The notes beneath the pieces were generated by a model. It searched no databases and was not told the DNA's origin. It saw only the letters and a program-made list of their open reading frames with translations. A DNA stretch of 64,000 nucleotides from Botryllus schlosseri (taxonomy: Eukaryota). The translations under genes and the position numbers were made by a program. Below are positions 10,401 through 43,845 of this stretch, piece after piece (position 1 is the stretch's first letter; every line of letters starts with the position of its first letter). The stretch lies in NCBI GenBank assembly GCA_051294905.1, contig CM119373.1, positions 3,226,001 through 3,290,000 of the forward strand, written 5' to 3'.

Positions 10401-10914
10401 CTAGAAATAGTCATATCCAATCACCGAAGAATCCATTTGTGTTACAGCTGTGAAGCGTAGGCTACGGCTGCTTTATACTGGACACATTGAATTGACGATA
10501 ATAACATGAATAAAGACACCCAATATGACACACGATGTAACCAACTATACATCAAGAGGGAAACATCATGCCGATGGTTGCCATACCGCCCTGCTTATAT
10601 ATCTAAATAAGCTACGAAACGCAACCTTTTGATATTTTACTGTTTTCCATACCAGTTTTATAGTTTGTTGCATCCTTAGTTGTACAAAGTCACGGCGCTC
10701 CGCGTCACAAAAGTCCTTCTCTGATGGTATCTCTTGACACGACTCAACTCGAGTCATTTATATTTCATCACTCATTAAGTCCGAGTTCGAGTAATTCTAC
10801 AAAAGATTGCGCCCAAGTCCAAATCACAATTTTCGATACGAATCATCGACGGGTCATGTTTAACCATAATAAACAAGTAATGTCACGTAATAGGTAATCT
10901 GTCAATGCGTCGTA

Positions 10915-13900
10915 AGTAGTTATATAGATCGGTCGTGAGGTGCCTGGGTTTCTTATGGCGGGGTGGCGATTCGTATTGAAAACCGGGGGTGGCGACTCGT
11001 ACTTTCAGACCCCCCGCGGGGCCGCGATTCGTAATGGGTTCTTATGGATGCGGTCGTGATTCGTACTTTTGGGTATAGGCTGCGGCGGTGAATCGTAATG
11101 AGAACTCGTGGTCGTGATTCGCACTTTCAGACATCTCTCGCGTGGTGTTGAATATGTACGAGTCACCGACAATAACCGCGCAGACGGAAACGTGGCTTGT
11201 TGTGAGGATTAAGCAGTGCGTGCGACAGACGGCGATTCGAATATCAACAATAGTCGCGTTCGCAAACTAACACTTCAAAAAGATGTGAAATATTTGTAAA
11301 ATCCTACGATCGCTCACAAGATACCACTTCCGGCAAATCGATCTATCACTCAATACACAACCGAAGTTGAATTGTAATTGAATGCGTAAATTTATCACCT
11401 CGACATCAAAATTCGAAAACAACAACTTGATGCTTTATGTTCTCACTCTAATTTCATGATAAGTGTAATAAGTGCCGAATAACAGATACACCACCGGCGA
11501 GACTTGGATACCAACAAATTGTCACTTATTTCTATTCTAGCCGTAATCCTTTGTGAAGTTAACGCTTATTCAAAAAGGTGTGAAATATTTGCAAAACCCC
11601 GCGATCACTGACAAGATAATGTCTCGGACATAACCATCTTTCGCGACTTGGTGTCATAACCATACCGATCGCTCACGCGGTGAAATTTTAGTAATCAGTT
11701 TGTCACAGAACTTGATTTCGCTGGTAAGATTTAACAAGTAACGAATAATAGACCGCCAGGGTCGGTAACTTGAATAGCGACAAATTGTCACTTATTTCCG
11801 CTCTAACCCTAATCCTCTGTGAAGTGAACGCTTATTCAAAAGGGTGTGATATAATTTGAAAACCCGACGACCACTCACCGGATAAAGCTTCAGACATAGC
11901 AATCCCTCATACCCGCTCACAAGGTAATATTTCGGTAATTAGTTTGTCCCAGAACCATCGCAGACGGTGATTCGAAAACCAACAATTTGTCACTTGCCCG
12001 CGATCGCTATACGTTTCACGCCTCCCGAATAGTGGCTGACTTTAGTTGCGTGATAAGATCCATGAAAATATTCAATCAATGTGTTAGTTTGTCAACTTGA
12101 AATGTAACTCACTACACAAATCAAGTTGAATCGTATTTGAATGTATTGATTCGACCCAACTCAAATCCTATTAACGCGATCTGTTGAATCGAACGTAACC
12201 TGAATATTACTGACGCCAACATTCACTCTCATCGGATCATTCACACATTCCACGCCGCTGTTTTAACACTTATAGAATCAATACCAACTATCTCTGACCC
12301 GATAATATTCAATCATTTTGGTAATTTGCCAACTTTAAATCCATTCGCGGGATGTACTAAAGGTAAATCCAAATAATCCAGAATGAAATATTTGGACTTA
12401 GACATTGTGCGAATTGAAATAGGTTTGACAAACATGACTACCAACTTTCACCCAGTCACATTTCAAGATTATACTTTGAAACAATCCTTGAAACTGACAA
12501 CTCTATTCACGACTGAGTTTTCCGAGCAACTCGGTAAGGTCATAGTTACTACCGCATTACCTAATTTACCCGACCAACTCGTCATGATCATTCCTGAAAT
12601 CAACACAAACATGACTACTGACTTGAGTCAACCACAAAACAGCATCAAGTTTTAAATCCGCTTGTAGCTTACGGCTTATTTGAATGCAGGTTATGTTTTG
12701 TTGTAATTGAGTGTACGGAAATAGTATTACGTCTCGACATCTCACCATCTTACCATACTCAAAGAGTCAACCACGAAAACATTGTCAAGTAAATCCGTTA
12801 CCCAACCAACTCAAACAGTATCAGTACGAAAAACAACCAAACATACACGAATCCATACAATCACTAAAACCTAAAATCCATAACAAGCTTGGTTGTATTC
12901 ATATCCCTACACATCTTTTTTTTATTCAGCTTGAAAAGTCGTTACTATTCTGTAAGATTGAGGAATTACTACGCGGTATATTCTGCAAGACAAACTAATT
13001 ACTACTCGGTATATTTTGTAAGACAAAAGTAATTACTCTTTGGTACAGGCGACTTGAGATTAACATAATATGTTTGAGTATACGAGATTTGAAAGTCCGA
13101 CCAACGTAGTTGAGAATTCATTTCTTACAATCGAACGATGGTGTTATATTCAAAGTTATCATGCTGTGAACATAAGGATTGACACATTGATTTGACATAT
13201 GAGATTTGTAATAGTTGATCATTACTTTATTATTAAATTATTTGCGTTAATTAGACCCGGCGTTGTGGTAAATGTTATGACAGCAACAGACTTTTCAGTA
13301 CCAATGTTATTAACATATTAAGCTGTAAAACTATGTATGTCTGAAATGTTCTTGATTGGAAAATTACTCCACCTTGGTAAAAATCACTCGGCGTATCGCG
13401 GATATCAGAAAATATTTCCAGTAACCAAGACTAAAGATGAAACGACAATATCGGTATTATTACATTCAACAATCAGTACAATTATTAAAATCTATCGTTT
13501 GCGATAAACAGCACTAAAGATGTAATAATTCCAGTATTCATACATTGAACATCCGATACAAAATGCTTTATTATCCCGATTCCCAACGGGTAATTGAAAC
13601 GACTAAGTGTAGAATCAGTATATCACAATATCGTTACTATTGAATCCAACGATTTATTGTCGGAATTTGTGACAGAGAATTGAAACATATGCACTTTACA
13701 GAGTATGAAAATATCACTTTGAGTATCGAGTACCGTTCGAAGCTAGCGATCAATTCTTAATCATTTCAGTAACTCCCCATTGTGCGTGCTAAATGTAAAA
13801 TATCGCGAGGTTATACACTCTAAGACTTTGATTATTGTAAAAGTAAATTGTGATATGTTTGTTAGATGCATCCAATTCAACTAGAAGTGTCTAGTGCCCA

Positions 13901-16900
13901 ACACTCGTAATATCAAAAAAGTACTTGCTACACTGTTATTTGCTAAACGTGTTTTGCATTGTTGTTCATTTCTAGTATTGATTGAAATCATTCTTGAACC
14001 CTCAAATAATAATTCCCGACATGAAACCAAGCCGCTGAAATCACGAAGATACAATGTGTACGATGTTTGTCAAATGTGTCCTACCTGGCCAACAGAAAAC
14101 AATTTTCACTAGCTTGGTAATGAAACCGAAGTCTCCATTCGATATTTTGTTTGTGTCAAATACTTTACAATGAACACATTTGCGTGGTTGAGCTTTACAT
14201 CATCAGACTGCCATCTGTACATCAAGAATACATCCGACTTGTAACTGGGTCGTTTACCTAACCGAGTTGTATGCACAGTTTGATATTTTTGTCATTTAGT
14301 GATTGCTGAACATACCACTTCGAAATACCGCGTTGATCTCAATTTCCATCATCGTGATAAGTGAAGTACATTTGTTTTGAATTCATAGCAATAGGCTTTT
14401 CTATGGTATGATAAATTATTGACAAGCTCTGCTTAGAAGATTGGTTGCATATCACGAAAATAATATACCACACATATTATTACTGTTACTCCATTCATCG
14501 GTATTTTTTCCGTTGTCGATTTTCAAACGAGTAAAATTTATTACTTGAGTTGCTCTGCTTACTATATTTAAATGTAAACTCACCCGTCTTTCAACAACAA
14601 ACAATGTTAAAAAAGTATGCAATCAAACACAACAAGTTTTACGATACTAATTATTATCCCACATAACCCATTTCTTACCGAAGACATATGAAATATATTC
14701 ATGTTACACGAAAATATTCGCTCATGCTACAAACCTGTACAATGATTGGTGGTGCTTTCAAACTGTTTCGACACCTCAAGAACTTTATTGTCTGAATGGT
14801 TGTTCATGTATCGTAATAATCAAGTAGTTCAACACAGAACTAGTATTAACAGAAACACCAGAGTTGTTTACACAAAAGTTTGTATGCGTACAGTATGCGA
14901 ATACCATGTGTAAGTCGAGCGCAATTGCGGTATCCATCCAAGTTTAGTTAACACAAATTCATTACAACGGAGCCGCGTAAACCTTCGTGAAAGAAAAGCA
15001 TACCCACTTCCCGAGGGTTCTGTCAATGTCATAACAATAAACCAGATACTCCAACAACAGAGTACATATGTTTTCTAGTCACGATCCTTACATCTTTCAC
15101 ATAGATCAATCTACTTTGCTACCGAAAAGTACTGAGTCATCATATGGTTGTCCTCACAACTAAAACATACTATCGTACAAAATGGTCGTTATAGTTTGCA
15201 CACCAACGGTACATCGTACAAGTAACAAGGTTCGAGAATCCAGTTATTCAAAAAAAAAAAAACGTGAAAGTATTTCTACACCAAGTCGTTATGTTGACGA
15301 AAGCGTATATTGTAATATCATGATCGATTTGCATTCGTTGGCCACAAACTGTCACTACTCTAAATAATTCTTTTTCACTCAAACACAATCGCATACTTGT
15401 CACCATTCGTTTTCATCAAGCACGAGTTCAAGAAACTTACTTACTACGACATGAATTTTTATTTTTATGTTGTGTAAATAGGTAATAATTAATTCAAGTA
15501 ACACTATATCAACATCATCGACTTGTGCTAATAGATTTACATGCGGTCTTGTGGTTTTCGTCGGGTCATACAGCACGAACTAACTGTAGACTCCTCTCTG
15601 TTGTACAACTACTCGGTAATCGAAATGCATTAACATGTAAACAACGATCTTGTTTCGTCACACCAAAAATATGTTCACTGTCGCGATACTCCGCACAAGA
15701 CGCGCATAGCCTTTTCACACTCGTAATAGTATACCAACGTCAAACGATAACGTTTAACAAGACCAACGACACTGAGCCCACGACGTTTACCTATGTGAAA
15801 TTACCACTTTCACTTGCCAGTCCATCGTTTACCTGACTAAACATATTATTTTCCTTTGGAGATCTGACGTTTACCCAGAGTAAGAAACCATTTTCACTTG
15901 TAAATATATTTTTTCCTTGGCTAACAAACCTTTTTTCACTTGGAAATATATTTTTTCCTTGGCTAACAAACCTTTTTTCACTTGGAAATATATTTTTTCT
16001 CTGGTTAACAAACCTTTTTCACTTGGAAATATATTTTTTCTCTGGTTAACAAACCTTTTTCACTTGGAAATATATTTTTTCTCTGGTTAACAATCCTTTT
16101 TCACTTGGAAATATATTTTTCCCTGGGTAACAAACCTTTTTTCCCTGAGCAACAAACCATTCTCACTTGGTGGTCCGTCGTTTAGCCGAGTAAAAATATC
16201 ATTTTCCTTTGGAGATCCGGCGTTTACCCAGTGTAACAATACATTTTCACTTGGAAAAATACTTTTACCTAGAGTAACTAATCATTTTCTCCTGGGTAAC
16301 AATCCCTTTTCGTCTGGAAACTATCATTTAACTGAGTACCAATACCGTTTTCACTTGGAAATACATTTTTTCCCTGGGTAACAATACCATTTTCGTTTTG
16401 AAAACTGACAACCACACCGGTCAATTTGATATTTTTGTATATTGTTACAACAAACAGTGACGGAAATATACACAGACAACCGGTTTCAGAGTATACCCCA
16501 TCGGTCGTATCACATCAATATCATCGGTTAACCACATACAATATGCTCTTGTACACTGAAATGCATGTTTTGGAAACTTGGACAATAGGCCTCGATAGTT
16601 CTGTGATGTCCGGGTTCGTGCTTTGGATTTTCCAGAGTCAAAATGTCTGAATAAAACACCTCCTCGACGACGGTTGGTATGTGGATAACGGTTGGATTTA
16701 TGTCACCCATCGCGATAACAATTCCTGGTCGAGTTTTCCACCGGCATGTTTACTATATTGTGTCTTTATTGATCAATGTATGTCTCGACATTCAGTTTGA
16801 AATCGGAAATGCTAAAGTATGTAACCGGATCCGGATATCAACTCTGAATCGATAAACCAATGAACAATATTCAAAGTAAACATGTCACACCCTGTGTTTC

Positions 16901-17101
16901 CACGAAAAAATACCATCCAGACATACGTCGCGCTTGTTTGCCCACACCAGTATATGCGCAAATGGAGGTGTGTGACATTGCATGCAATGTGTTGGTATAC
17001 AAACATCGATCCACAGACATTATCATAGTCGGTAATTTTGATGCAGATCGAATGTCACCCGATAACAATACCAATAAGCCACATTGCAATGACTCTGAGT
17101 C
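10915..17101 (+). repeat. Left arm of palindrome 1 (6187 bp)
   Basis: Reverse complement of 18018-24207; mirrored ORF pairs in the track (e.g. 12383+/22467-, 15525+/19283-). Confidence 0.97.
15885..16390. repeat. ~38-39-bp minisatellite (TTTTCACTTGGAAATATATTTTTTCTCTGGTTAACAAACC-like); mirrored at ~18730-19235
   Basis: About 7 near-perfect tandem units with degenerate flanking units. Confidence 0.9.
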
Positions 17102-17635
17102 TGCGCTATTACATCGATATTTCGACACCGTTCACTGATTTATTCGATGGTGTTATCGTGTTGTAACATTACAAGATAGTCATGACCCTATCTCCGGACA
17201 GATCACCCAGATCAATTGGATACATCGGTCAATATCCGTCGTGTTGTCGACACCGAAGTTTTCTGCTGCAGCGTTTGACCAATGTGAACTATCGAAGTAC
17301 GGTGCTCGAAATGATTGCAATCAGTCTTTCAGTCACGATCAATGGATGTCGCTACTCCCACATAACGACTCCGGATAAATATCGTGCAAATGTCGGACTG
17401 ATATTGTGATCCAATAAGGTATGTTTCTGTGGAATGAAGACTGCAATCGTACACCACAATAGAACACTACCTCGTGATTTCACACGCAATCATAAAACAC
17501 ACTTTCGTAAGGGTCTAGCTCGTCCGGTGACATTTCGAAACGGTCGTCACCACAAGAGATCGGGGTTGGTCTCGTCATATCGGAGCATTTTGAAACGACA
17601 TCGTCACAAGTCTATTGACGTCGATTCAGTTGGTC

Positions 17636-17911
17636 ATGTCAATCCGTTTCACAATCCACCGTTTTTCCACTCCCCGCACCATAGTGTTACGACACAGACA
17701 AGAAGCGTCGGTGGAAATGATAAAACACGGAAGGTACACTTTGGTGTTATTTGATATGGATTTTACACCAGACGAACCTCACATTCGAGTGATGCATTTG
17801 AATGGCGATTGTATTATTGATGTCCAGGGAAAAGAAATGTATCGATTTATCGGATTTGTACATATCCAACAAAAACCTGGGTATATGATTGTACACGGTT
17901 CGCATATTTGA
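17636..17911 (+). CDS. Putative 91-aa protein of unknown function in the loop of palindrome 1
   Basis: MSIRFTIHRF...GYMIVHGSHI; indel-free homolog in copy 2 with many synonymous changes. Confidence 0.45.
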   Translation: MSIRFTIHRFSTPRTIVLRHRQEASVEMIKHGRYTLVLFDMDFTPDEPHIRVMHLNGDCIIDVQGKEMYRFIGFVHIQQKPGYMIVHGSHI

Positions 17912-18017
17912 CTGTGATCACAATATTGGTATATACTGTACAGTTCACTTTCACCGCCGTGCGAATAACCCATGTTACGGTTCCGTGTTTGTGTGTCTGT
18001 ATGTCATGCTTCAGATT

Positions 18018-21000
18018 GACTCAGAGTCATTGCAATGTGGCTTATTGGTATTGTTATCGGGTGACATTCGATCTGCATCAAAATTACCGACTATGATAAT
18101 GTCTGTGGATCGATGTTTGTATACGAACACATTGCATGCAATGTCACACACCTCCATTTGCGCATATACTGGTGTGGGCAAACAAGCGCGACGTATGTCT
18201 GGATGGTATTTTTTCGTGGAAACACAGGGTGTGACATGTTTACTTTGAATATTGTTCATTGGTTTATCGATTCAGAGTTGATATCCGGATCCGGTTACAT
18301 ACTTTAGCATTTCCGATTTCAAACTGAATGTCGAGACATACATTGATCAATAAAGACACAATATAGTAAACATGCCGGTGGAAAACTCGACCAGGAATTG
18401 TTATCGCGATGGGTGACATAAATCCAACCGTTATCCACATACCAACCGTCGTCGAGGAGGTGTTTTATTCAGACATTTTGACTCTGGAAAATCCAAAGCA
18501 CGAACCCGGACATCACAGAACTATCGAGGCCTATTGTCCAAGTTTCCAAAACATGCATTTCAGTGTACAAGAGCATATTGTATGTGGTTAACCGATGATA
18601 TTGATGTGATACGACCGATGGGGTATACTCTGAAACCGGTTGTCTGTGTATATTTCCGTCACTGTTTGTTGTAACAATATACAAAAATATCAAATTGACC
18701 GGTGTGGTTGTCAGTTTTCAAAACGAAAATGGTATTGTTACCCAGGGAAAAAATGTATTTCCAAGTGAAAACGGTATTGGTACTCAGTTAAATGATAGTT
18801 TCCAGACGAAAAGGGATTGTTACCCAGGAGAAAATGATTAGTTACTCTAGGTAAAAGTATTTTTCCAAGTGAAAATGTATTGTTACACTGGGTAAACGCC
18901 GGATCTCCAAAGGAAAATGATATTTTTACTCGGCTAAACGACGGACCACCAAGTGAGAATGGTTTGTTGCTCAGGGAAAAAAGGTTTGTTACCCAGGGAA
19001 AAATATATTTCCAAGTGAAAAAGGATTGTTAACCAGAGAAAAAATATATTTCCAAGTGAAAAAGGTTTGTTAACCAGAGAAAAAATATATTTCCAAGTGA
19101 AAAAGGTTTGTTAACCAGAGAAAAAATATATTTCCAAGTGAAAAAAGGTTTGTTAGCCAAGGAAAAAATATATTTCCAAGTGAAAAAAGGTTTGTTAGCC
19201 AAGGAAAAAATATATTTACAAGTGAAAATGGTTTCTTACTCTGGGTAAACGTCAGATCTCCAAAGGAAAATAATATGTTTAGTCAGGTAAACGATGGACT
19301 GGCAAGTGAAAGTGGTAATTTCACATAGGTAAACGTCGTGGGCTCAGTGTCGTTGGTCTTGTTAAACGTTATCGTTTGACGTTGGTATACTATTACGAGT
19401 GTGAAAAGGCTATGCGCGTCTTGTGCGGAGTATCGCGACAGTGAACATATTTTTGGTGTGACGAAACAAGATCGTTGTTTACATGTTAATGCATTTCGAT
19501 TACCGAGTAGTTGTACAACAGAGAGGAGTCTACAGTTAGTTCGTGCTGTATGACCCGACGAAAACCACAAGACCGCATGTAAATCTATTAGCACAAGTCG
19601 ATGATGTTGATATTATAGTGTTACTTGAATTAATTATTACCTATTTACACAACATAAAAATAAAAATTCATGTCGTAGTAAGTAAGTTTCTTGAACTCGT
19701 GCTTGATGAAAACGAATGGTGACAAGTATGCGATTGTGTTTGAGTGAAAAAGAATTATTTAGAGTAGTGACAGTTTGTGGCCAACGAATGCAAATCGATC
19801 ATGATATTACAATATACGCTTTCGTCAACATAACGACTTGGTGTAGAAATACTTTCACGTTTTTTTTTTTTTGAATAACTGGATTCTCGAACCTTGTTAC
19901 TTGTACGATGTACCGTTGGTGTGCAAACTATAACGACCATTTTGTACGATAGTATGTTTTAGTTGTGAGGACAACCATATGATGACTCAGTACTTTTCGG
20001 TAGCAAAGTAGATTGATCTATGTGAAAGATGTAAGGATCGTGACTAGAAAACATATGTACTCTGTTGTTGGAGTATCTGGTTTATTGTTATGACATTGAC
20101 AGAACCCTCGGGAAGTGGGTATGCTTTTCTTTCACGAAGGTTTACGCGGCTCCGTTGTAATGAATTTGTGTTAACTAAACTTGGATGGATACCGCAATTG
20201 CGCTCGACTTACACATGGTATTCGCATACTGTACGCATACAAACTTTTGTGTAAACAACTCTGGTGTTTCTGTTAATACTAGTTCTGTGTTGAACTACTT
20301 GATTATTACGATACATGAACAACCATTCAGACAATAAAGTTATTGAGGTGTCGAAACAGTTTGAAAGCACCACCAATCATTGTACAGGTTTGTAGCATGA
20401 GCGAATATTTTCGTGTAACATGAATATATTTCATATGTCTTCGGTAAGAAATGGGTTATGTGGGATAATAATTAGTATCGTAAAACTTGTTGTGTTTGAT
20501 TGCATACTTTTTTAACATTGTTTGTTGTTGAAAGACGGGTGAGTTTACATTTAAATATAGTAAGCAGAGCAACTCAAGTAATAAATTTTACTCGTTTGAA
20601 AATCGACAACGGAAAAAATACCGATGAATGGAGTAACAGTAATAATATGTGTGGTATATTATTTTCGTGATATGCAACCAATCTTCTAAGCAGAGCTTGT
20701 CAATAATTTATCATACCATAGAAAAGCCTATTGCTATGAATTCAAAACAAATGTACTTCACTTATCACGATGATGGAAATTGAGATCAACGCGGTATTTC
20801 GAAGTGGTATGTTCAGCAATCACTAAATGACAAAAATATCAAACTGTGCATACAACTCGGTTAGGTAAACGACCCAGTTACAAGTCGGATGTATTCTTGA
20901 TGTACAGATGGCAGTCTGATGATGTAAAGCTCAACCACGCAAATGTGTTCATTGTAAAGTATTTGACACAAACAAAATATCGAATGGAGACTTCGGTTTC

Positions 21001-24000: not shown

Positions 24001-24207
24001 CGAATCACGACCACGAGTTCTCATTACGATTCACCGCCGCAGCCTATACCCAAAAGTACGAATCACGACCGCATCCATAAGAACCCATTACGAATCGCGG
24101 CCCCGCGGGGGGTCTGAAAGTACGAGTCGCCACCCCCGGTTTTCAATACGAATCGCCACCCCGCCATAAGAAACCCAGGCACCTCACGACCGATCTATAT
24201 AACTACT
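18018..24207 (-). repeat. Right arm of palindrome 1 (6190 bp)
   Basis: Inverted copy of 10915-17101. Differences seen: a 3-bp indel near 19611 and substitutions near 18126, 20342 and 21669. Confidence 0.97.
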
Positions 24208-24622
24208 GTCGTAACTTTTGAAAGTGATGTAATACTGAAGTTTGATGAGTAGTTTCTGGCTTCTGGAGTGGTTTTAGAGCGAATTCTAAGTTCTCAAATT
24301 AAAAAAAATTGGTATTCAAATATTAAATTAATTAAAATCCAAAATGCCGTCGCGGGGCGCACAAAATGGTCTCGCGGGCCGCGTGTTTGAGACCTCTGGC
24401 TTAATATGACTTCATAGCAGTATGGAAGATGTGGAAAGCTCACACAAATACCTTTTACGCGACCACAAAGAATGCAATGCTATTTCTACATCACATTAAA
24501 GATTATTTGATATTTTTCAACCACGAATATTTCATTGCACTTTGCGAAAATGATGTAGGTTAATCACTAATTTATAGATATGTCATTAGCACCAAATTAC
24601 GTAGTTGTGTAGGCTACTACAT

Positions 24623-30925: not shown

Positions 30926-33900
30926 AGTAGTAGTATATATCGGTCACGAATCGCCATAGGGTTCTTATGGGCCCGCTGGTGAGGTGTCGCGACACTCGTG
31001 TTGGTGATGGCACCCTTTGTTAATGTGTATATCGTAAATTATTATATATGATGTCGTAGTTTAGTCGTGTCAAATGACCGATCGTGTTCCAACTCTTTCC
31101 TCGCTATTGATTGCTACCTGAATAATACTTTCAGATCGGATTATTCACACCGCTGTTTCGCACCTACAGAATAGTCTGCTGTTCACAGTCGCAACTTCAT
31201 CGCGATAGCACAATTTTCACACCTCGGTGTCGGTAACTTGAATAGCGACAAATTGTCACTTATTTCCACTCTAACCCTAATCCTTTGTGAAGTGAACGCT
31301 TATTCAAAAGGGTGTGATATAATTTTAAAATCCGACGACCACTCACCGGATAATGCTTCAGACATAGAAATCCCTCATACCCGCTCACAAGGTAATATTT
31401 CGGTAATTAGTTTGTCACAGAACCGTCGCAGGCGGTGATTCGAAAACCAACAATTTGTCACTTGCCCGCGATCGCTATATGTTTCACGCCTCCAGAATAG
31501 TGGCTGACTTTAGTTGCGTGATAAGATCCATGAAAATATTCAATCAATGTGTTAGTTTATCAACTTGAAATGTAACTCACTACACAAATCAAGTTGAATC
31601 GTATTTGAATGTATTGATTCGACCCAACTCAAATCCTTTGACAAATCCTATTAACGCGATCTGTTGAATCGAACGTAACCTGAATATTACTGACGCCAAC
31701 ATTCACCCGCATCGGATCATTCACACATTCCACGCCGCTGTTTTAACACTTATAGAATCAATACCAACTATCTCTAACCCGATAATATTCAATCATTTTG
31801 GTAATTTGCCAACTTTAAATCCATTCGCGGGATGTACTAAAGGTAAATCCAAATAATCCAGAATGAAATATTTGGACTTTGACATTGCGTGAATTGAAAT
31901 AGGTTTGACAAACATGACTACCAACTTTCACCCAGTCACATTTCAAGATTATACTTTGAAACAATCCTTGAAACTGACAACTCTATTCACGACTCCGTTT
32001 CCGTTTGTAAAATAGAGTTTCAGAAATACTATCACTATGACAACTCAACATTTTAACATCTCGCCATGCATAAACGAGTAAAATACAAAAACCTTGGTAA
32101 GTCAATCCGTTTGTAGTAACTCACCAAACCAAAACAAAAAGAGTCCGTATGAAAAGTAGACAAGACTACGCGAGTAATCACTACAACCCGCAAACATATC
32201 AACTCAGTTGTATCCATATCCCATATTTTTTATTCAACTGTAAGATGAAGTAATTACTACTTGGCGCGCGGTTTGTGATTAACACATTACATTTGAGTAT
32301 ACGAGATTTGAATGTCTGACCAACGTAGTTGAGAATTCTTACAATCGAACGCAGGTGTTATATTGAAAATTTTCACGAATTGACACATTGATTTTGACAT
32401 ATGAGATTTTGTAATAGTCGATCATGACTTGATTATTAAATTATGACATTATTAGACCAGGGTTGTGTTGAAGGTTATTACGATACCAACAAACTTTTCA
32501 GAAACATTGTTATTAACATATCGATTTGTAAAACTAGATTAACATGTCTGAAATGTTTTGATTGGGAAGATTAAGCCGTGTTCGTAAAAACCACGCAGCG
32601 TATTGTGGAAATCAGGAAATAATTTACAAATGTAATTGTCTCCAGTAACCAAGACTAAAGATGAAACAACAATTTTCTTTGTTGAACAATAACCGATACA
32701 ATACTTTATCGTCGTAATCTGCGGTGGGAATTGAAACACTTTCGCACATTTCCCGGTGTCAAGATATCACACTAGGTGAATTGACATATCGCCGCTTGAT
32801 TAATGCTTAATCCGTTCGCACCATTTCACACACTTTGATCATTACAAAAAACAAATTGGAATATGTTTGCTAGATGCATTCAATTCAGTTAGAAATGTCT
32901 GGTACACAACAATCGTAATATCAATGAAGTACTTGCTACACTGTAATTCACTTAACGTGTTTTGCATTGTTGTTCATTTGTAGTATTGATTGTTTTTGAA
33001 CCCCCAAATAATAATTCCCCGACATGAAACCAAACCGCTGAAAGTCATTACCCCCACAAAAACAATCTGTATGATATTCACCAAACGCATCCCGACTCAG
33101 CATGCAGAAATTATTTGTAGAGTGCATACCGACAAAGAAATCACGAACACAACCAACACCGAAAATGATAAACACGTTTCGCGTTACTATTGATACAAGT
33201 TCATTTCTATCGTCGAAATAAATGCCACCACAAAACTCAGAGCATGCAAAGGTCTTGATTGATATGAATTTCGATTTGTGTCTTATGATACCAGCAAGCA
33301 TTTTAGACATATTACGAATTGTTAAACCGAAGTCGTACGTCCGATTAATAGTTGATTGGAAACTTGTTCACGTACCTCAACCATTACAGAAAAGTATAAC
33401 ACCATTGTCCGACAATCTTTTACAAAAAGGATCGAAATCAAGTCACTCAAAGTCGTTGCCGTCACATAAACAATTTGTACGACGTTTGCTAAATGCGTCC
33501 TATAGTTAGGTGTACTAGAAATATTTGTAAAACACACTCCGAAAAAGAAATCGGCGAAAAGATATCCTACACCTAAATCTGGTAAAACCAGTTTGCACTT
33601 TTTGTTCATTAGTATGGTATCCATTTCCTTTCGTCAAAGTAGATGTAATCATAGTCACTAAAGAACTTACTCGGACGTATGCTTCAATTCTAGACATAGT
33701 TCTGATTTGTCCGACACAAGACCCAAGAACAACCCTAGTTTCAACCGAGCACACATATCCAAAATATCACACACTCCGCTATTCCTAAAGCGCAAACACC
33801 CGATACAAAATATTACTTTTTGTGATGTTGCGGCATCATCTTCACAATATCACACACAATACAAATGATGGTTATGTGTAACATGCTATCGACTTGAATC

Positions 33901-36563
33901 ACACCAACATGGAAGAGGATTTACTCACTCTTTACATAACGATATTGACCAACATCACGTCGTCGGAGTGTATCGTTTTTTCTAGATACAAACTACGCTA
34001 GTGTAGCGGAAAATAATTTAGTGTAACAAAAACAATTTTCACTCTCTTGACTTATGAAAACAACAGACGAGTCTTCATTCAATATTTTGTTTGTGTCAAC
34101 AAGTTACTTTCTATGATACGACTGATACCCGCGCGACTTTTTCAGATCACAATATGAAAGATATTTACATCACACAAAATACTCCACTTGATATTCCCAT
34201 ACTATACTAAACTGTGGAATGGTTGGTCAGACTCTACAAAATGTTTTGATATCGTTTTTCACACGAATGGTCACGCATCTAAATATTCAAATAATCCAAC
34301 ACACAACTATAGTACTTACAGAAATATCATAGTTCTTGTAACAAAGTTGTATGAATATACTATTCAATTGTATATTGAAGTTTTCTACCTCCAAGAAGAT
34401 CTTCAAAGTTGTATGTGTAGTTGTGTACAATGTATATCGTGAGTCCTACACATTCATGATATCCACCCGAGTTTGACTTTTAGTAAACACTATACCGACA
34501 TCGCGACATCTTTCAAAATTAAGATCACGGTGACTGCTTGAGAGACCTACCAATGATATTGCAGTAATACAGTTACTTCCACAAAAGAGTATGTATTCGA
34601 CTTACTTTCCACAAATCTTACACACAAATCAATCTACTTTGCTAACGAAAAGTGCTGAGTCATCACATGGTTGTCCTCACAACAATACAACTAAAACATA
34701 CTATCATACAAAACGGTCGTTATAGTTTGCACACCAACGGTACATCGTACAAGTAGCAAGTCTCGAGAATCCAGTTATTCAAAAACGTGAAAGTGTTTCT
34801 ACACCAAGTCGGTATGTTGACGAAAGCATATGTTGTAATATCATGATCGATTTGCATTCGTTGGTCACAAAATGTCACTCCTCTAAATAATTATTTTTCA
34901 CTCAAACACAAAAGCATACTTGTCACCATTCGTTTTCATCAAGCACGAGTTCACGAAACTTACTTACTACGACATGAATTGTTATTTTTATGTTGTGTAA
35001 ATAGGTAATAATTAATTTTAGTAACACTATATCAACATCATCGAGTTGTGCGAATAGATTTACACGCGGTCTTGTGGTTTTAATCGAAGTACACAGCACG
35101 GTCTAATGTAGAGCCATCTCATTGTACAGCAACTCGGTAATCGAAATGCATGCATTAAAATTTAAACAGCGATCTTGTTTCATCACGCGAAAAATATGTT
35201 CACTATCGCGATACTCTGCACAGGACGTGTAAATCCTTTTCACGCTCGTAATAGTATCCCAACGGCTACCGGCGACAACGTTTAACAACACCAACGACAC
35301 TAAACATACGATACCTACCCAAGTAAAATTTCCATTTTCACCTGGAGGTCAGCCGTTACCTGAGTAAAAATACCATTATTCTTTGGAGATTTATCGTTTA
35401 ATCAGAGTAACAATACATTTTCACTTGGGGGTCTATCGTTTCCAAGAGTAACAAGCCCCCTTTCCTTTGGAAATCTATTTTTCCCTGGGTAACAAACCTT
35501 TTTCACTTGGAAATATATTTTTTCTCTGGGTAACATACCTTTTTCACTTGGAAATATATTTTTTCCCTGAGCAACAAACCTTTTTCACTTGGAAATATAT
35601 TTTTTCCCTCAGCAACAAACCATTTTCACTTGGAAATATATTTTTTTCCCTGAGCAACAAACCATTTTCACTTGGCGGGTCGTCGTTTACCTGAGTAAAA
35701 ATATTATTTTCCTTTCGAGATCTGGCGTTTACCCAGTGTAACAATACATTTTCTCTTGGTCATCTAGCTTTTCCTAGAGTAACAAAACCATTTTCATTTT
35801 GAAATCTGACAAACACACCTGACAATTTGGTATTTTTTGTATTGACGATAGTTTGAAATAGAATGCAAGGAACAGTGACGGAAATATACACGGACTACCG
35901 GTTTCAGAGTATACCCCCATCAGTCGTATCACATCAATATCATCGGTTAACCACATACAATATGCTCTTGTACACCGAAATGCATGTTTTGGAAAATTGG
36001 ACAATAGGTTTCGACATGTCCGCGATGTCCGGGTTCGTGCTTTGGATTTTCCAGAGTCAAAATGTCTGAATAAAACACCTCCTCGACGATGGATGGTATG
36101 TGGATAACGGTGTTCGGAAAACGGTTGGATTTATGTCACCCATCGCGATAACAATTCCAGGTCGAGTTTTCCCCCGCATGTTTACTATGTTGTGTCTTTA
36201 TTGGTCAATGTGTGTCTCGACATTCAGTTTGAAATCGGAAACCCTGATAAAGTATGTAACCGGATCCGGATATCAACTCTGAATCGATAAACCAATGAAC
36301 AATATTCAAAGTAAACATGTTACACCCTGTGTTTCCACGAAAAAATACCATCCAGACATACGTCGCGCTTGTTTGCCCACACCAGTATATGCGTAATGGG
36401 GTGTGTGACATTGCATGCAATGTGTTGGTATACAAACATCGGGGAGTAAGCCTTCGATCCACAGACATTATCATAGCCGGTAATTTTGATGCAGATCGAA
36501 TGTCATCAAGCACACCCGATAACAATGTCATACCAATAAGCCACATTGCAATGACTCTGAGTC
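30926..36563 (+). repeat. Left arm of palindrome 2 (5638 bp; lacks a 689-bp subterminal block)
   Basis: Reverse complement of 37517-43845 except 43069-43757; mirrored ORF pairs (e.g. 32948-/40772+). Confidence 0.96.
35410..35760. repeat. Same ~38-39-bp minisatellite in copy 2; mirrored at ~38320-38670
   Basis: TTTTCACTTGGAAATATATTTTTT... tandem units; fewer units than in copy 1. Confidence 0.85.
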
Positions 36564-37132
36564 CGCGCTATTAAATTGATATTTCAACACCGTTCACTGA
36601 TTTATTCGATGGTGTTATCGTGTTGTAACATTACAAGATAGTCATGACCCTATCTCCAGACGGACCACTCAGACCAATTGGATATATCGGTCAATATCCA
36701 TCGTGTTGTCGACACCGAAGTTTTCTGCTGAGACTGCAGCGTTTGACCAATGTGAACTATCGAAGTACAGTGCTCGAAATGATAGCGATCAGTCTTTCAG
36801 TCACGATGCATGGATGTCGCTACTCCCACATAACGACTCCAGATAAATATCGTGAACTGTGATTCTGCAAATCTCGGACTGATACTGTGATCCAATAAGG
36901 TGTGTTTCAGTGGAATGAAGACTGCAATCGTACACCACAATAGAACACTACCTCGTGATTTCACACGCAATCATAAAACACATCATCGTAAGGGTTCCGT
37001 TCGTCTGGTAACATTACAAAAAACGGTCGTCACCACGCGAGATCGGGATTGGTCTCGTCATATCGAGGAACAATTTGAAACGGTATCGTCACAAGGCTAT
37101 TGACGTTGATTCAGTTGGTCATATCGAAGAAC

Positions 37133-37414
37133 ATGTCAATCCGTTTTACAAAGTACCGTTTTTCAAGTTCCTGCACCATAGTGTTACGACACAGACAAGA
37201 TGCGACGGTGGAAATAATAAAACACGGAAGGCACACTTTGGTGTTATTTGACATGGATTTTACACCAGACGAACCTCACATTCGAGCGATGAATTGGAAC
37301 GCCACTTGTATTATTGACATCGAAGGGAAAGAAATGTATCGATTTATTGGTTTCGTACATATCCAACAAAAATCTGGGTATATGATTGTGCATGGTTCGC
37401 ATATTCGACTGTGA
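37133..37414 (+). CDS. Putative 93-aa protein of unknown function in the loop of palindrome 2
   Basis: MSIRFTKYRF...GYMIVHGSHIRL; colinear with 17636-17911. Confidence 0.45.
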   Translation: MSIRFTKYRFSSSCTIVLRHRQDATVEIIKHGRHTLVLFDMDFTPDEPHIRAMNWNATCIIDIEGKEMYRFIGFVHIQQKSGYMIVHGSHIRL

Positions 37415-37516
37415 ACGCTCTATTGGTATATGTTGTACAGTTCACTTTCACCGTCGTGCGAATAACCCATGTTACGGTTCCATGTTTGTGTGTGTCTGTA
37501 TGTCATACTTCAGATT

Positions 37517-40500
37517 GACTCAGAGTCATTGCAATGTGGCTTATTGGTATGACATTGTTATCGGGTGTGCTTGATGACATTCGATCTGCATCAAAATTAC
37601 CGACTATGATAATGTCTGTGGATCGAAGGCTTACTCCCCGATGTTTGTATACCAACACATTGCATGCAATGTCACACACCTCCATTTACGCGTATACTGG
37701 TGTGGGCAAACAAGCGGGACGTATGTCTGGATGGTATTTTTTCGTGGAAACACAGGGTGTAACATGTTTACTTTGAATATTGTTCATTGGTTTATCGATT
37801 CAGAGTTGATATCCGGATCCGGTTACATACTTTATCAGGGTTTCCGATTTCAAACTGAATGTCGAGACACACATTGACCAATAAAGACACAACATAGTAA
37901 ACATGCGGGGGAAAACTCGACCTGGAATTGTTATCGCGATGGGTGACATAAATCCAACCGTTTTCCGAACACCGTTATCCACATACCAACCATCGTTGAG
38001 GAGGTGTTTTATTCAGACATTTTGACTCTGGAAAATCCAAAGCACGAACCCGGACATCGCGGACATGTCGAAACCTATTGTCCAATTTTCCAAAACATGC
38101 ATTTCGGTGTACAAGAGCATATTGTATGTGGTTAACCGATGATATTGATGTGATACGACTGATGGGGGTATACTCTGAAACCGGTAGTCCGTGTATATTT
38201 CCGTCACTGTTCCTTGTATTCTATTTCAAACTATCGTCAATACAACAAATACCAAATTGTCAGGTGTGTTTGTCAGATTTCAAAATGAAAATGGTTTTGT
38301 TACTCTAAGAAAAGCTAGATGACCAAGAGAAAATGTATTGTTACACTGGGTAAACGCCAGATCTCGAAAGGAAAATAATATTTTTACTCAGGTAAACGAC
38401 GACCCGCCAAGTGAAAATGGTTTGTTGCTCAGGGAAAAAAATATATTTCCAAGTGAAAATGGTTTGTTGCTGAGGGAAAAAATATATTTCCAAGTGAAAA
38501 AGGTTTGTTGCTCAGGGAAAAAATATATTTCCAAGTGAAAAAGGTATGTTACCCAGAGAAAAAATATATTTCCAAGTGAAAAAGGTTTGTTACCCAGGGA
38601 AAAATAGATTTCCAAAGGAAAGGGGGCTTGTTACTCTTGGAAACGATAGACCCCCAAGTGAAAATGTATTGTTACTCTGATTAAACGATAAATCTCCAAA
38701 GAATAATGGTATTTTTACTCAGGTAACGGCTGACCTCCAGGTGAAAATGGAAATTTTACTTGGGTAGGTATCGTATGTTTAGTGTCGTTGGTGTTGTTAA
38801 ACGTTGTCGCCGGTAGCCGTTGGGATACTATTACGAGCGTGAAAAGGATTTACACGTCCTGTGCAGAGTATCGCGATAGTGAACATATTTTTCGCGTGAT
38901 GAAACAAGATCGCTGTTTAAATTTTAATGCATGCATTTCGATTACCGAGTTGCTGTACAATGAGATGGCTCTACATTAGACCGTGCTGTGTACTTCGATT
39001 AAAACCACAAGACCGCGTGTAAATCTATTCGCACAACTCGATGATGTTGATATAGTGTTACTAAAATTAATTATTACCTATTTACACAACATAAAAATAA
39101 CAATTCATGTCGTAGTAAGTAAGTTTCGTGAACTCGTGCTTGATGAAAACGAATGGTGACAAGTATGCTTTTGTGTTTGAGTGAAAAATAATTATTTAGA
39201 GGAGTGACATTTTGTGACCAACGAATGCAAATCGATCATGATATTACAACATATGCTTTCGTCAACATACCGACTTGGTGTAGAAACACTTTCACGTTTT
39301 TGAATAACTGGATTCTCGAGACTTGCTACTTGTACGATGTACCGTTGGTGTGCAAACTATAACGACCGTTTTGTATGATAGTATGTTTTAGTTGTATTGT
39401 TGTGAGGACAACCATGTGATGACTCAGCACTTTTCGTTAGCAAAGTAGATTGATTTGTGTGTAAGATTTGTGGAAAGTAAGTCGAATACATACTCTTTTG
39501 TGGAAGTAACTGTATTACTGCAATATCATTGGTAGGTCTCTCAAGCAGTCACCGTGATCTTAATTTTGAAAGATGTCGCGATGTCGGTATAGTGTTTACT
39601 AAAAGTCAAACTCGGGTGGATATCATGAATGTGTAGGACTCACGATATACATTGTACACAACTACACATACAACTTTGAAGATCTTCTTGGAGGTAGAAA
39701 ACTTCAATATACAATTGAATAGTATATTCATACAACTTTGTTACAAGAACTATGATATTTCTGTAAGTACTATAGTTGTGTGTTGGATTATTTGAATATT
39801 TAGATGCGTGACCATTCGTGTGAAAAACGATATCAAAACATTTTGTAGAGTCTGACCAACCATTCCACAGTTTAGTATAGTATTGGAATATCAAGTGGAG
39901 TATTTTGTGTGATGTAAATATCTTTCATATTGTGATCTGAAAAAGTCGCGCGGGTATCAGTCGTATCATAGAAAGTAACTTGTTGACACAAACAAAATAT
40001 TGAATGAAGACTCGTCTGTTGTTTTCATAAGTCAAGAGAGTGAAAATTGTTTTTGTTACACTAAATTATTTTCCGCTACACTAGCGTAGTTTGTATCTAG
40101 AAAAAACGATACACTCCGACGACGTGATGTTGGTCAATATCGTTATGTAAAGAGTGAGTAAATCCTCTTCCATGTTGGTGTGATTCAAGTCGATAGCATG
40201 TTACACATAACCATCATTTGTATTGTGTGTGATATTGTGAAGATGATGCCGCAACATCACAAAAAGTAATATTTTGTATCGGGTGTTTGCGCTTTAGGAA
40301 TAGCGGAGTGTGTGATATTTTGGATATGTGTGCTCGGTTGAAACTAGGGTTGTTCTTGGGTCTTGTGTCGGACAAATCAGAACTATGTCTAGAATTGAAG
40401 CATACGTCCGAGTAAGTTCTTTAGTGACTATGATTACATCTACTTTGACGAAAGGAAATGGATACCATACTAATGAACAAAAAGTGCAAACTGGTTTTAC

Positions 40501-43500
40501 CAGATTTAGGTGTAGGATATCTTTTCGCCGATTTCTTTTTCGGAGTGTGTTTTACAAATATTTCTAGTACACCTAACTATAGGACGCATTTAGCAAACGT
40601 CGTACAAATTGTTTATGTGACGGCAACGACTTTGAGTGACTTGGTTTCGATCCTTTTTGTAAAAGATTGTCGGACAATGGTTTTATACTTTTCCGTAATG
40701 GTTGAGGTACGTGAACAAGTTTCCAATCAACTATTAATCGGACGTATGACTTCGGTTTAACAATTCGTAATATGTCTAAAATGCTTGCTGGTATCATAAG
40801 ACACAAATCGAAATTCATATCAATCAAGACCTTTGCATGCTCTGAGTTTTGTGGTCGCATTTATTTCGACGATAGAAATGAACTTGTATCAATAGTAACG
40901 CGAAACGTGTTTATCATTTTCGGTGCTGGTTGTGTTCGTGATTTCTTTGTCGGTATGCACTCTACAAATAATTTCTGCATGCTGAGTCGGGATGCGTTTG
41001 GTGAATATCATACAAATTGTTTTTGTGGGGGTAATGACTTTCAGCGGTTTGGTTTCATGTCGGGGAATTATTATTTGGGGGTTCAAAAACAATCAATACT
41101 ACAAATGAACAACAATGCAAAACACGTTAAGTGAATTACAGTGTAGCAAGTACTTCATTGATATTACGATTGTTGTGTACCAGACATTTCTAACTGAATT
41201 GAATGCATCTAGCAAACATATTCCAATTTGTTTTTTGTAATGATCAAAGTGTGTGAAATGGTGCGAACGGATTAAGCATTAATCAAGCGGCGATATGTCA
41301 ATTCACCCAGTGTGATATCTTGACACCGGGAAATGTGCGAAAGTGTTTCAATTCCCACCGCAGATTACGACGATAAAGTATTGTATCGGTTATTGTTCAA
41401 CAAAGAAAATTGTTGTTTCATCTTTAGTCTTGGTTACTGGAGACAATTACATTTGTAAATTATTTCCTGATTTCCACAATACGCTGCGTGGTTTTTACGA
41501 ACACGGCTTAATCTTCCCAATCAAAACATTTCAGACATGTTAATCTAGTTTTACAAATCGATATGTTAATAACAATGTTTCTGAAAAGTTTGTTGGTATC
41601 GTAATAACCTTCAACACAACCCTGGTCTAATAATGTCATAATTTAATAATCAAGTCATGATCGACTATTACAAAATCTCATATGTCAAAATCAATGCGTC
41701 AATTCGTGAAAATTTTCAATATAACACCTGCGTTCGATTGTAAGAATTCTCAACTACGTTGGTCAGACATTCAAATCTCGTATACTCAAATGTAATGTGT
41801 TAATCTCAAACCGCGCGCCAAGTAGTAATTACTTCATCTTACAGTTGAATAAAAAATATGGGATATGGATACAACTGAGTTGGTATGTTTGCGGGTTGTA
41901 GTGATTACTCGCGTAGTCTTGTCTACTTTTCATACGGACACTTTTTGTTTTGGTTTGGTGAGTTACTACAAACGGATTGACTTACCAAGGTTTTTGTATT
42001 TTACTCGTTTGTGCATGGCGAGATGTTAAAATGTTGAGTTGTCATAGTGATAGTATTTCTGAAACTCTATTTTACAAACGGAAACGGAGTCGTGAATAGA
42101 GTTGTCAGTTTCAAGGATTGTTTCAAAGTATAATCTTGAAATGTGACTGGGTGAAAGTTGGTAGTCATGTTTGTCAAACCTATTTCAATTCACGCAATGT
42201 CAAAGTCCAAATATTTCATTCTGGATTATTTGGATTTACCTTTAGTACATCCCGCGAATGGATTTAAAGTTGGCAAATTACCAAAATGATTGAATATTAT
42301 CGGGTTAGAGATAGTTGGTATTGATTCTATAAGTGTTAAAACAGCGGCGTGGAATGTGTGAATGATCCGATGCGGGTGAATGTTGGCGTCAGTAATATTC
42401 AGGTTACGTTCGATTCAACAGATCGCGTTAATAGGATTTGTCAAAGGATTTGAGTTGGGTCGAATCAATACATTCAAATACGATTCAACTTGATTTGTGT
42501 AGTGAGTTACATTTCAAGTTGATAAACTAACACATTGATTGAATATTTTCATGGATCTTATCACGCAACTAAAGTCAGCCACTATTCTGGAGGCGTGAAA
42601 CATATAGCGATCGCGGGCAAGTGACAAATTGTTGGTTTTCGAATCACCGCCTGCGACGGTTCTGTGACAAACTAATTACCGAAATATTACCTTGTGAGCG
42701 GGTATGAGGGATTTCTATGTCTGAAGCATTATCCGGTGAGTGGTCGTCGGATTTTAAAATTATATCACACCCTTTTGAATAAGCGTTCACTTCACAAAGG
42801 ATTAGGGTTAGAGCGGAAATAAGTGACAATTTGTCGCTATTCAAGTTACCGACACCGAGGTGTGAAAATTGTGCTATCGCGATGAAGTTGCGACTGTGAA
42901 CAGCAGACTATTCTGTAGGTGCGAAACAGCGGTGTGAATAATCCGATCTGAAAGTATTATTCAGGTAGCAATCAATAGCGAGGAAAGAGTTGGAACACGA
43001 TCGGTCATTTGACACGACTAAACTACGACATCATATATAATAATTTACGATATACACATTAACAAAGGTTCATTCACATGACTATTTACTTGATACATAT
43101 TCAACACCGTGCGAGAGATGCCTATACCCGAAAGGGCGATTCACGACCGCATCCATAAGAATAACGATATATCGAAGTCGCGCTCGCCGTAAACGTTAGG
43201 ATTACCCGGAATCGGTCATATATAATAATTTGGGGTATACACAATAACTAAGGATCAATCACGTGATCAATATACTTCGTAATCAACATCACCTCATGAC
43301 CGCAGCCTATACCAACTACATTAGTTCACTACGACACAAGAATCCGTGGGCACATCATCACCCCAGCATATATCTGAAAGGGTACCATCATCACCACATA
43401 GGCACATCATCACCACATGGGGGTCTGAAAGGGTACCATCACCACCACGAGTTTTCACGGCACATCATCGCCGCAGCCTATACCAGAAAGGGTACCATCA

Positions 43501-43845
43501 TCACCGCATCCATAAGAACACATGGCACCTCACCAGAGATCCCATAAGAACCAATGGCACATCACCAGAGATCCCGTAAGAAACAATGGCACATCACGAG
43601 CGATAGGGGGTCTGAAATGGTACCATCAACAACACGAAGGTACCAACACGAGTTTTCACGGCACATCACCGACGAAGCCTATACCGGAAAGGGTACCATC
43701 ACCAGAGATCCCATAAGAACACATGGCACCTCACCAGCGGAAGGGGGGGTCAAAAGGGTGCCATCACCAACACGAGTTTCGCGGCACCTCACCAGCGGGC
43801 CCATAAGAACCCTATGGCGATTCGCGACCGATCTATACTACTACT
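37517..43845 (-). repeat. Right arm of palindrome 2 (6329 bp)
   Basis: Inverted copy of the left arm plus a 689-bp subterminal block and a net 2-bp indel near 37680. Confidence 0.96.
43340..43830. repeat. Subterminal array of GGCACMTCA/GGTACCATCA motifs, mostly ~32-bp spacing
   Basis: About 15 motif copies (e.g. 43491, 43524, 43556, 43588, 43619, 43692, 43725, 43757) separated by linkers such as CCATAAGAAC. Confidence 0.85.

Follow-up and report, generated by a model that had tools for sequence, protein, structure and literature searches.

Palindromic elements with Polinton/Maverick ends, and an autonomous Polinton sharing these ends, in the genome of Botryllus schlosseri

Two palindromic elements in a 64-kb window

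The analysed window is a 64-kb stretch of the Botryllus schlosseri genome (G000:C3:3226001-3290000), and the genome searched was the 495-Mb assembly. The window contains two large palindromic elements, copies 1 and 2 (Table 1). Each is a tail-to-tail inverted dimer of a unit of approximately 6.2 kb around a loop of approximately 0.9 kb. Judging by their ends, their target site duplications (TSDs) and a helper found in the same genome, they are non-autonomous derivatives of Polinton/Maverick elements.

Both elements start with AGTAGT. The junctions are GTCGTA / AGTAGTTATATAGATCGGTC ... ACTACT / GTCGTA in copy 1 and CACGTT / AGTAGTAGTATATATCGGTC ... ACTACT / CACGTT in copy 2. The coordinates, the AGTAGT and ACTACT ends and both TSDs are exactly as given in a first-pass annotation of the window, which had read the two copies as mobile elements with 6-bp TSDs. 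Such duplications also occur elsewhere, in nine of ten fetched relatives and in 2/2 elements of a sister family considered below. Moreover, copy 1 has empty sites. In all five paralogous sites fetched the flanks are contiguous, with one GTCGTA, ATCGTA or GCCGTA hexamer. Thus copy 1 is a precise insertion with duplication of 6 bp. The host sequence of copy 1 (positions 10515-10914 and 24208-24400) is a member of another abundant repeat family (84-90% identity, 2295 first-look candidates). A joint between positions 10900 and 24210 (sides of 21-23 nt), seen in two DNA data sets, was not counted as an empty allele, because the flanks are a repeat with paralogous empty sites.

The inverted arms constitute 93% of the 13,293 bp of copy 1. 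In exact alignments they differ by three mismatches and one 3-bp indel in 6187 bp in copy 1, and by 25 mismatches and a 2-bp indel in approximately 5550 bp in copy 2. The value of 100% produced by the repeat finder is rounded, and the true differences are those of the exact alignment. Copy 2 also carries a one-sided deletion of approximately 690 bp. Its junction is private, as it was found nowhere else among 40 scored matches.

No stop-free frame in the window elements exceeds 119 amino acids (aa). With the 17 open reading frames (ORFs) of the helper as queries, tblastn detects nothing in the arm and loop of copy 1 at E<0.1; the rest of the window is likewise devoid of matches. None of the 34 ORFs from the arm and loop of copy 1 passes the Pfam cut-offs. 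The copy 1 arm has 27 frames of at least 60 aa, and none of them is open in more than two of up to eight relatives. Rfam and tRNA scans of arm and loop gave nothing above noise. The window elements have no polymerase or integrase of their own.

The first-pass description of these elements holds with two amendments. Inverted arms around loops of 916 and 953 bp are present in both copies, the arms being near-identical rather than perfect. The absence of ORFs over approximately 120 aa is literally correct, but each loop contains a conserved ORF of 91 aa, considered below. The reported lack of pPolB, integrase, ATPase, protease and capsid motifs agrees with our tblastn and Pfam results, which reveal no Polinton gene inside the elements.

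Several features of the arms may be listed here. The inner arm contains arrays of 41-42-bp tandem repeats (15881-16403, with a mirror image in the right arm), which together with two short arrays cover approximately 0.5 kb of the 6.2-kb arm of copy 1. The GC skew is mirror-imaged between the arms (11001-17000 and 18001-24000; 31001-36000 and 38001-43000). On the plus strand, C exceeds G in most 1-kb bins of the left arms (skew down to -0.23), and G exceeds C in those of the right arms; thus the strand that enters the element 5' to 3' from either end is the C-rich one. Word depth summed over the DNA data sets is far higher in the element than in the flanks, a difference that yields no copy number.

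Table 1. Features of the two palindromic elements (window positions)
Feature	Position	Strand	Comment
Palindromic element, copy 1	10915..24207		13,293 bp
Left TSD, copy 1	10909..10914		GTCGTA; single hexamer at 5/5 paralogous empty sites
Terminal region shared with autonomous Polintons, copy 1	10915..11220	+	mirror image at 23902-24207
Left arm, copy 1	10915..17101	+	6187 bp; non-coding in all tests run
Loop, copy 1	17102..18017	+	916 bp
ORF C, copy 1	17636..17911	+	91 aa plus stop (codons 17636-17908), MSIRFT...GSHI
Right arm, copy 1	18018..24207	-	6190 bp; 99.95% identical to reverse complement of left arm
Right TSD, copy 1	24208..24213		GTCGTA; direct, perfect match to left TSD
Palindromic element, copy 2	30926..43845		12,920 bp; second terminal subfamily, GGTGATGGYACC subterminal motifs
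Left TSD, copy 2	30920..30925		CACGTT; perfect direct hexamer
Shortened left terminal region, copy 2	30926..31013	+	88 bp; approximately 690 bp fewer than right end
Left arm, copy 2	31014..36563	+	first 52 bp recur (98-100% identical) as inverted pairs around two pPolB loci
Loop, copy 2	36564..37516	+	953 bp; 88% identical to copy 1 loop
ORF C, copy 2	37133..37414	+	93 aa plus stop (codons 37133-37411)
Right arm, copy 2	37517..43068	-	99.55% identical to reverse complement of left arm
Full-length right terminal region, copy 2	43069..43845	-	777 bp
Right TSD, copy 2	43846..43851		CACGTT; perfect direct hexamer

The autonomous Polinton and the shared ends

The 300-bp terminus of copy 1 has many inverted paired matches in the genome, 12-29 kb apart. 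Ten pairs were fetched. Seven of them delimit palindromes (11.9-14.1 kb) and three delimit non-palindromic elements (16.1-17.4 kb; L003-L008). The latter have terminal inverted repeats (TIRs) of 602-770 bp, the two TIRs being 94.3-98.4% alike, and dense ORFs; all three have AGTAGT ends and perfect 6-bp TSDs. We call these elements helpers, and the palindromes satellites.

A Pfam scan of the 17 ORFs of one helper recognised three of them (polymerase, integrase and NTPase). A 1300-aa ORF matches PF03175 (pPolB; E 2e-8, 34 bits against a cut-off of 25.8), and a 359-aa ORF matches the rve integrase core PF00665 (60 bits) and the chromodomain PF00385 (35 bits). A 217-aa ORF produces matches to P-loop NTPases, of which RNA_helicase is barely above the cut-off (21.9 bits against 21.5), whereas AAA_14 and Pox_A32 are below theirs; this ORF is a weakly assigned P-loop NTPase, a candidate for an FtsK/A32-type packaging ATPase. 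A 432-aa ORF has an AF2 model (pLDDT 87) with the fold of double-jelly-roll major capsid proteins. In Foldseek this model matches capsid proteins of SGIV (iridovirus), PBCV-1, Sputnik and mavirus (E from 1e-16 to 1e-13, TM 0.5-0.65), and it also matches capsid proteins in BFVD. The ORF has 133 homologues in animals, for which the only name given by the sources is "F54H12.2-like". Based on the model, it can be confidently predicted to encode the major capsid protein. Sequence profiles identified no protease family, and thus no adenain-like cysteine protease, at E<=0.01 among the 17 ORFs.

The helper polymerase was scored at 36 loci with 91-100% identity, and 23 of these are without stop codons (382 first-look candidates). 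A first-look profile search of the genome with PF03175 gave zero matches; this is a false negative, as the polymerase is present. The 16-17 kb elements are standard, recently active Polinton/Maverick elements. Thus the mobilisation in trans supposed in the first-pass annotation has a candidate agent: an autonomous Polinton sharing the termini of the palindromes is found in the same genome.

The terminal region of copy 1 consists of an (AGT)2 motif, variable nucleotides 7-37, a conserved stretch and six GAWTCGYA motifs (10968-11123). Only the first 306 bp or so of copy 1 match the helpers, with 77-94% identity to the three autonomous copies. In the fetched satellites the collinear end matches with helpers span 197-662 bp, the best match per type-A satellite being 213-662 bp and the best of all having 98% identity over 662 bp. 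In the terminal 100 bases of helpers and satellites, positions 1-6 and 38-100 are almost invariant, whereas positions 7-37 vary between elements; at all fetched ends, as at 10921-10951 of the window, this variation is mosaic. The two ends of one element agree at positions 7-37 in 11 of 12 elements, copy 2 differing at two positions. Over the entire 100 bases they agree except for four differences in copy 2 and one in the helper L007/8. A stretch of 52 bp just inside the terminal region of copy 2 occurs elsewhere as inverted pairs, 98-100% identical, that bracket two pPolB loci.

The terminus of satellite L009/10 coincides with that of helper L007 at 100/100 bases. The arm of satellite L015/16 (L015:164-1595) has 1.43 kb of helper end at 91-95% identity, passing the helper TIR by approximately 0.7 kb, and then continues with satellite-type arm sequence. 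Taken together, these two cases suggest that ends have been exchanged between helper and satellite, and the L015/16 arm points to helper-satellite recombination.

Ends were read in 14 elements (12 plus two of the sister family), and every one of them retains the (AGT)2 end repeat. Together with 6-bp TSDs such ends are the published Maverick motif (Barreat and Katzourakis 2021, PMC8097293). That study also links the repeated end motif to jumping-back in protein priming, and it gives a TIR length of 46-1447 bp and element sizes that stay within about 10% of 17 kb. Since the ends belong to pPolB-bearing elements, other superfamilies that make 6-bp TSDs were rejected.

Palindromy, the loop gene and a sister family

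In the genome, at least 40 sequences match the copy 1 loop over its full length, with 91-96% identity (1013 first-look candidates). Five further loop loci were examined over 3 kb on each side; all are palindromic, with arms 98.2-100% alike. In total, all 14 further members examined are palindromic, including 7/7 full elements and these 5/5 loop loci. In nine complete elements the arms are 99.49-100% identical within an element and 66.5-87.8% identical between elements. Homologous loops are present in most palindromic members, despite arm identities of only 66-88%. This agrees with the first-pass view that the palindrome is an inherited family trait. Copy 1 has relatives elsewhere in the genome with 99%, 98% and 96% identity and thus belongs to a young subfamily. 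The two arms of each element evolve in concert along the lineages. As the lineages have diverged by 12-33% while the arms of each element remain alike, either changes are copied from arm to arm or one arm is remade.

Assembly artefacts, such as fold-back chimeric long reads over ordinary shorter elements, could in principle produce such structures. Read data neither support nor refute the palindromes: at these loci the contigs of public DNA reads are approximately 80-150 nt, too short to bridge palindrome junctions, and bridge none in three data sets. In addition, the palindrome centred on the loop of the element at L011/L012 with L067/L068 (G000:C9:7514377-7538887) extends beyond the element by at least 5 kb on either side, at 99.9% identity with a single 538-bp indel. 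The hexamers next to this element are in inverted orientation (CACGGA/TCCGTG), and the structure resembles a fold-back join. This locus is either an element-seeded fold-back duplication or a misassembly; thus at least one palindrome is of other origin or an assembly error. However, of the 16 palindromic loci examined, all but one show different unique flanks or, if their ends were read, direct 6-bp TSDs. Genuine substitutions and indels separate the arms (3 to 25 mismatches and the 690-bp one-sided deletion), the loop carries a conserved gene and is not an adapter, the same architecture recurs in lineages with arms only 66-88% alike, and the paralogous empty sites fit the full element exactly. 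An artefact is therefore very improbable as a general explanation.

The conserved gene of the loop, ORF C, was analysed in 44 loops: the two from the window, four from fetched pairs, five from the loop loci, and 33 best matches to the copy 1 loop. Three fetched elements, whose loops are deleted or too divergent to align, were left out. ORF C is open and in frame in 41 loops of the 44. Two frames that are open in copy 1, and are probably not ancestral, are open in only 3/44 and 4/44 loops. In 22 independent nearest-neighbour pairs pN/pS of ORF C is 0.42 (synonymous excess, p=7e-7). The part without an overlapping frame has pN/pS 0.34, and the other two frames of this stretch, which served as controls, have 0.69 and 1.17. 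The divergent loop of L009/10 (approximately 75% DNA identity) retains an intact 91-codon ORF C with 57% protein identity. Four ORF C lineages, 69-78% identical in nucleotide sequence, are free of indels over 273 nt, with dN/dS 0.25-0.37 at dS 0.7-0.9. Thus, as judged from substitution patterns, ORF C is under purifying selection, with dN/dS of 0.25-0.42 across comparisons.

The loop frames ORF A and ORF B were rejected as genes: although they are open in 35/44 and 36/44 loops, respectively, their substitutions are inseparable from those of the control frames. ORF B (17434-17751, plus strand) is a basic 106-aa frame overlapping the start of ORF C. The helper ORFs have no match to ORFs C, B or A (E>0.9). 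A raw RNA run contained 102 matching reads of 12.9 million, all partial and from both strands, and is uninformative on expression.

A profile search of 1.84 billion proteins with ORF C yielded one true relative (P0002) and a WD40-repeat protein; the latter matches in seven weak stretches only and is regarded as spurious. No relatives were detected in viral and metagenome contigs by word-based searches, and the clusters of P0001 and P0002 are nameless. In the genome the divergent ORF C represented by P0002 has 1195 candidate matches. Of the 150 scored, 143 are without stop codons, and most occur as inverted pairs 3-17 kb apart. The protein presumably serves the satellite; it may bind the ends, hijack capsids, or interfere either with the helper or with the host.

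The distribution of conservation bears on yet another possibility, that of a host defence locus, in which read-through of the 6-kb hairpin would produce double-stranded RNA and small RNAs against Polinton ends. The hairpin geometry suits this function, and the terminal 0.2-1.4 kb are common to satellite and helper. On the other hand, the helper-like portion of each arm is small, and the conserved part is the loop protein ORF rather than the arms. Hundreds of copies with fresh TSDs and 99% relatives form the pattern of an active parasite. We consider this explanation improbable.

A second palindromic family was found in the same genome. Its first element (L065:372 to L066:8116; G000:C3:16026871-16043102) is 16,232 bp long, with AGTAGT ends, TSD CTCCAT, and arms of 8094 bp with three mismatches around a 44-bp centre. 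The second (L069:201 to L070:7863; G000:C9:5400595-5416320) is 15,726 bp long, with AGTAGT ends, TSD AGTCTT, and arms of 7848 bp at 99.85% identity around a centre of approximately 33 bp; it is inserted inside a copy-2-like element. This sister family and the window elements have unrelated arms and subterminal sequences and only the ORF C module in common (285 bp with 75% identity, plus approximately 90 bp upstream); in the sister family the module resides in the arm and thus occurs twice per element. Hence palindromy, ORF C and Polinton-type ends recur on unrelated backbones.

The arms of the second sister element also contain an intronless 220-aa ORF of the Bcl-2 family (PF00452, E 9e-22; L069:6194-6853 on the plus strand and L070:1211-1870 on the minus strand). 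Among 576 candidate matches to this ORF in the genome 150 were scored; these are mostly inverted pairs, and many are uninterrupted. The ORF is absent from the window.

Paired arm or terminal matches only 3-5 kb apart were observed at G000:C13:15015819-15020971, G000:C1:29885684-29889300 and G000:C1:19317205-19320506. Possibly, these are shorter deletion derivatives of the palindromic families.

Proposed replication and relation to known elements

In our interpretation, to which we assign a probability of about 0.8, both copies were inserted recently and belong to an abundant family of helper-dependent Polinton/Maverick satellites built as tail-to-tail dimers. The helper integrase would insert the satellites, which would explain the 6-bp TSD, and the protein-primed polymerase of the helper would copy them from either (AGT)2 end. 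A repeated end trinucleotide is a requirement of jumping-back initiation (PMC8097293). In an ordinary Polinton the displaced strand would pair via the TIRs only, forming a panhandle. A single strand of the palindrome, displaced or excised, would snap back entirely into a 6-kb hairpin, an extreme case of the adenovirus-type panhandle. The hairpin would at once rebuild the duplex origin and expose arm-to-arm mismatches to repair. Such repair would explain the concerted evolution of the arms, new copies being born with near-identical arms.

Doubling would also supply a one-ended unit with a second terminus. The resulting size of 12-16 kb, near the 16-17 kb of the helper, would suit packaging in helper capsids. 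Adenovirus mini-genomes are reported to dimerise under capsid size constraint. For Mavericks, a constraint of this kind is suggested by the narrow size range around 17 kb (within about 10%; PMC8097293).

Several observations weigh against this interpretation, in addition to the read data and the L011/L012 locus discussed above. Trans-mobilisation is inferred from the shared ends and TSDs, and the hairpin intermediate and packaging are likewise hypothetical. The arms drift in place, as seen from 98.2% identity at L024 and from the 25 mismatches and the private 690-bp deletion of copy 2. Thus homogenisation is not continuous in the chromosome, and the drift suggests instead that the arms become symmetrical again upon multiplication of the element; equally, the identity of the arms may stem from ordinary gene conversion in young copies. 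The arms beyond the ends are unrelated to the helper, and so the analogy with a copy-back of the helper is only partial. ORF C is an orphan: it belongs to no Pfam family, has only two near relatives, of near-identical length, in approximately 5.8 and 1.8 billion proteins, and its structural model (pLDDT 40) has no usable fold. It can be lost, as L015/16 and L001/2 are without it, and the sampled loops are biased, being chosen as best matches to the copy 1 loop.

The same data can be read in terms of integrase-only fold-back transposons, moved as double-stranded DNA with their arms kept alike by gene conversion; there would be no replication by the polymerase and no packaging, and the palindrome would have no role. 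The 6-bp TSD and the shared ends need nothing beyond an integrase, and gene conversion between close inverted repeats is generally known. The helper TIRs, 15 kb apart, are less alike (94.3-98.4%) than the arms approximately 1 kb apart, as distance-dependent conversion predicts. However, the arms drift in place at several loci (98.2-99.5%), copy 2 retains its private deletion of 690 bp, and the (AGT)2 repeat needed for protein priming is strictly kept in 14/14 elements. Repeated end swaps between satellite and helper are easier to explain by joint replication, and two unrelated sets of arms have both become palindromes of about the helper size. Thus this explanation seems rather unlikely, and we retain that of helper-dependent satellites.

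Some known systems are similar in part. Polintons, reportedly described by Kapitonov and Jurka in 2006, have in common with the satellites the (AGT)2//(ACT)2 ends and the 6-bp TSD; the TIRs are shared with copies bearing pPolB and integrase, and the size is in the Maverick range. The differences are that the inverted repeat here covers 86-99% of the element, with arms of 5.6-8.1 kb, against published TIRs of 46-1447 bp (PMC8097293), and that the window elements have no core genes and carry an orphan 91-aa gene absent from the helper. Satellites seem to be more numerous than helpers, as far as first-look candidate counts show.

Defective adenovirus genomes resemble the satellites in having a protein-primed helper, a repeated end trinucleotide and an inverted duplication that gives two identical ends; self-annealing of displaced strands keeps the two ends identical. 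Defective genomes with one end duplicated in inverted orientation were reportedly described by Daniell in 1976, and panhandle repair of the adenovirus inverted terminal repeats is said to have been reported by Leegwater in 1988. However, adenovirus defectives arise anew from helper sequence and have no lineage, whereas the satellite architecture is inherited across lineages differing by 12-33%. Also unlike them, the satellites have non-helper arms beyond the ends, are integrated in chromosomes and have their own gene. The comparison with copy-back defective viral genomes, made in the first-pass annotation, holds for the terminal 0.2-1.4 kb, which are helper sequence, and fails for the rest of the arms. 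The elements are not simple copy-back defective genomes of the helper, as only approximately 306 bp of copy 1 match the helper and no remnant of a helper ORF was found.

The foldback (FB) elements of Drosophila also have long inverted arms and a short centre, are mostly non-coding and are mobile. FB transposons have arms of tandem repeats and 9-bp TSDs. The 6-bp TSD, the Polinton ends and the low content of tandem repeats (approximately 0.5 kb per 6.2-kb arm) set the satellites apart from them.

Adeno-associated virus (AAV), with its hairpin or self-complementary genomes, and virophages (cf. PMC11575299) are similar in their dependence on a helper for replication and capsids, in having one or two genes of their own, and in self-complementary DNA. 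In contrast to both, the satellites are known from integrated DNA, and their genome would be double-stranded DNA of 12-16 kb or a hairpin of 6-8 kb. The satellite ends would be protein-primed, unlike the hairpin-primed ends of AAV.

No published description of palindromic Polinton derivatives was found in the literature, a search that did not extend to Repbase and Dfam. In the published accounts found (PMC8097293, PMC3014272, PMC6431247 and a Halocafeteria preprint), the elements described differ in having TIRs of at most 1.4 kb against arms of 5.6-8.1 kb here. The orphan gene, the second palindromic family with cargo and the apparent numerical dominance over the helper are further differences. 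One could tentatively go further and suggest, although we regard this as doubtful, that the satellites are an unrecognised class with a self-complementary genome replicated and packaged by the helper, in which palindromy is selected and re-created, the 91-aa protein is a hijacking factor, and some members carry host-derived Bcl-2 cargo.

To our knowledge, replication of Polinton/Maverick elements has been deduced almost entirely from their genes, with no handle on the intermediates. A large, young and diverse palindromic family is a natural probe of this process, as it leads one to expect single-stranded intermediates that self-anneal and an exchange of termini with the helper. It also indicates that parasites of animal Polintons need not be decayed copies and can retain a conserved gene absent from the helper; the sister family carries a homologue of apoptosis regulators. 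Finally, hundreds of palindromes of 12-16 kb are a potential source of fold-back rearrangements and a hazard for assembly; at one locus a palindrome of at least 24 kb is centred on an element.

Outside the two elements, the window contains a remnant of a LINE-type retrotransposon (long interspersed nuclear element) at positions 3150-6592 on the minus strand, with endonuclease (PF14529/PF03372) and reverse transcriptase (PF00078) frames.

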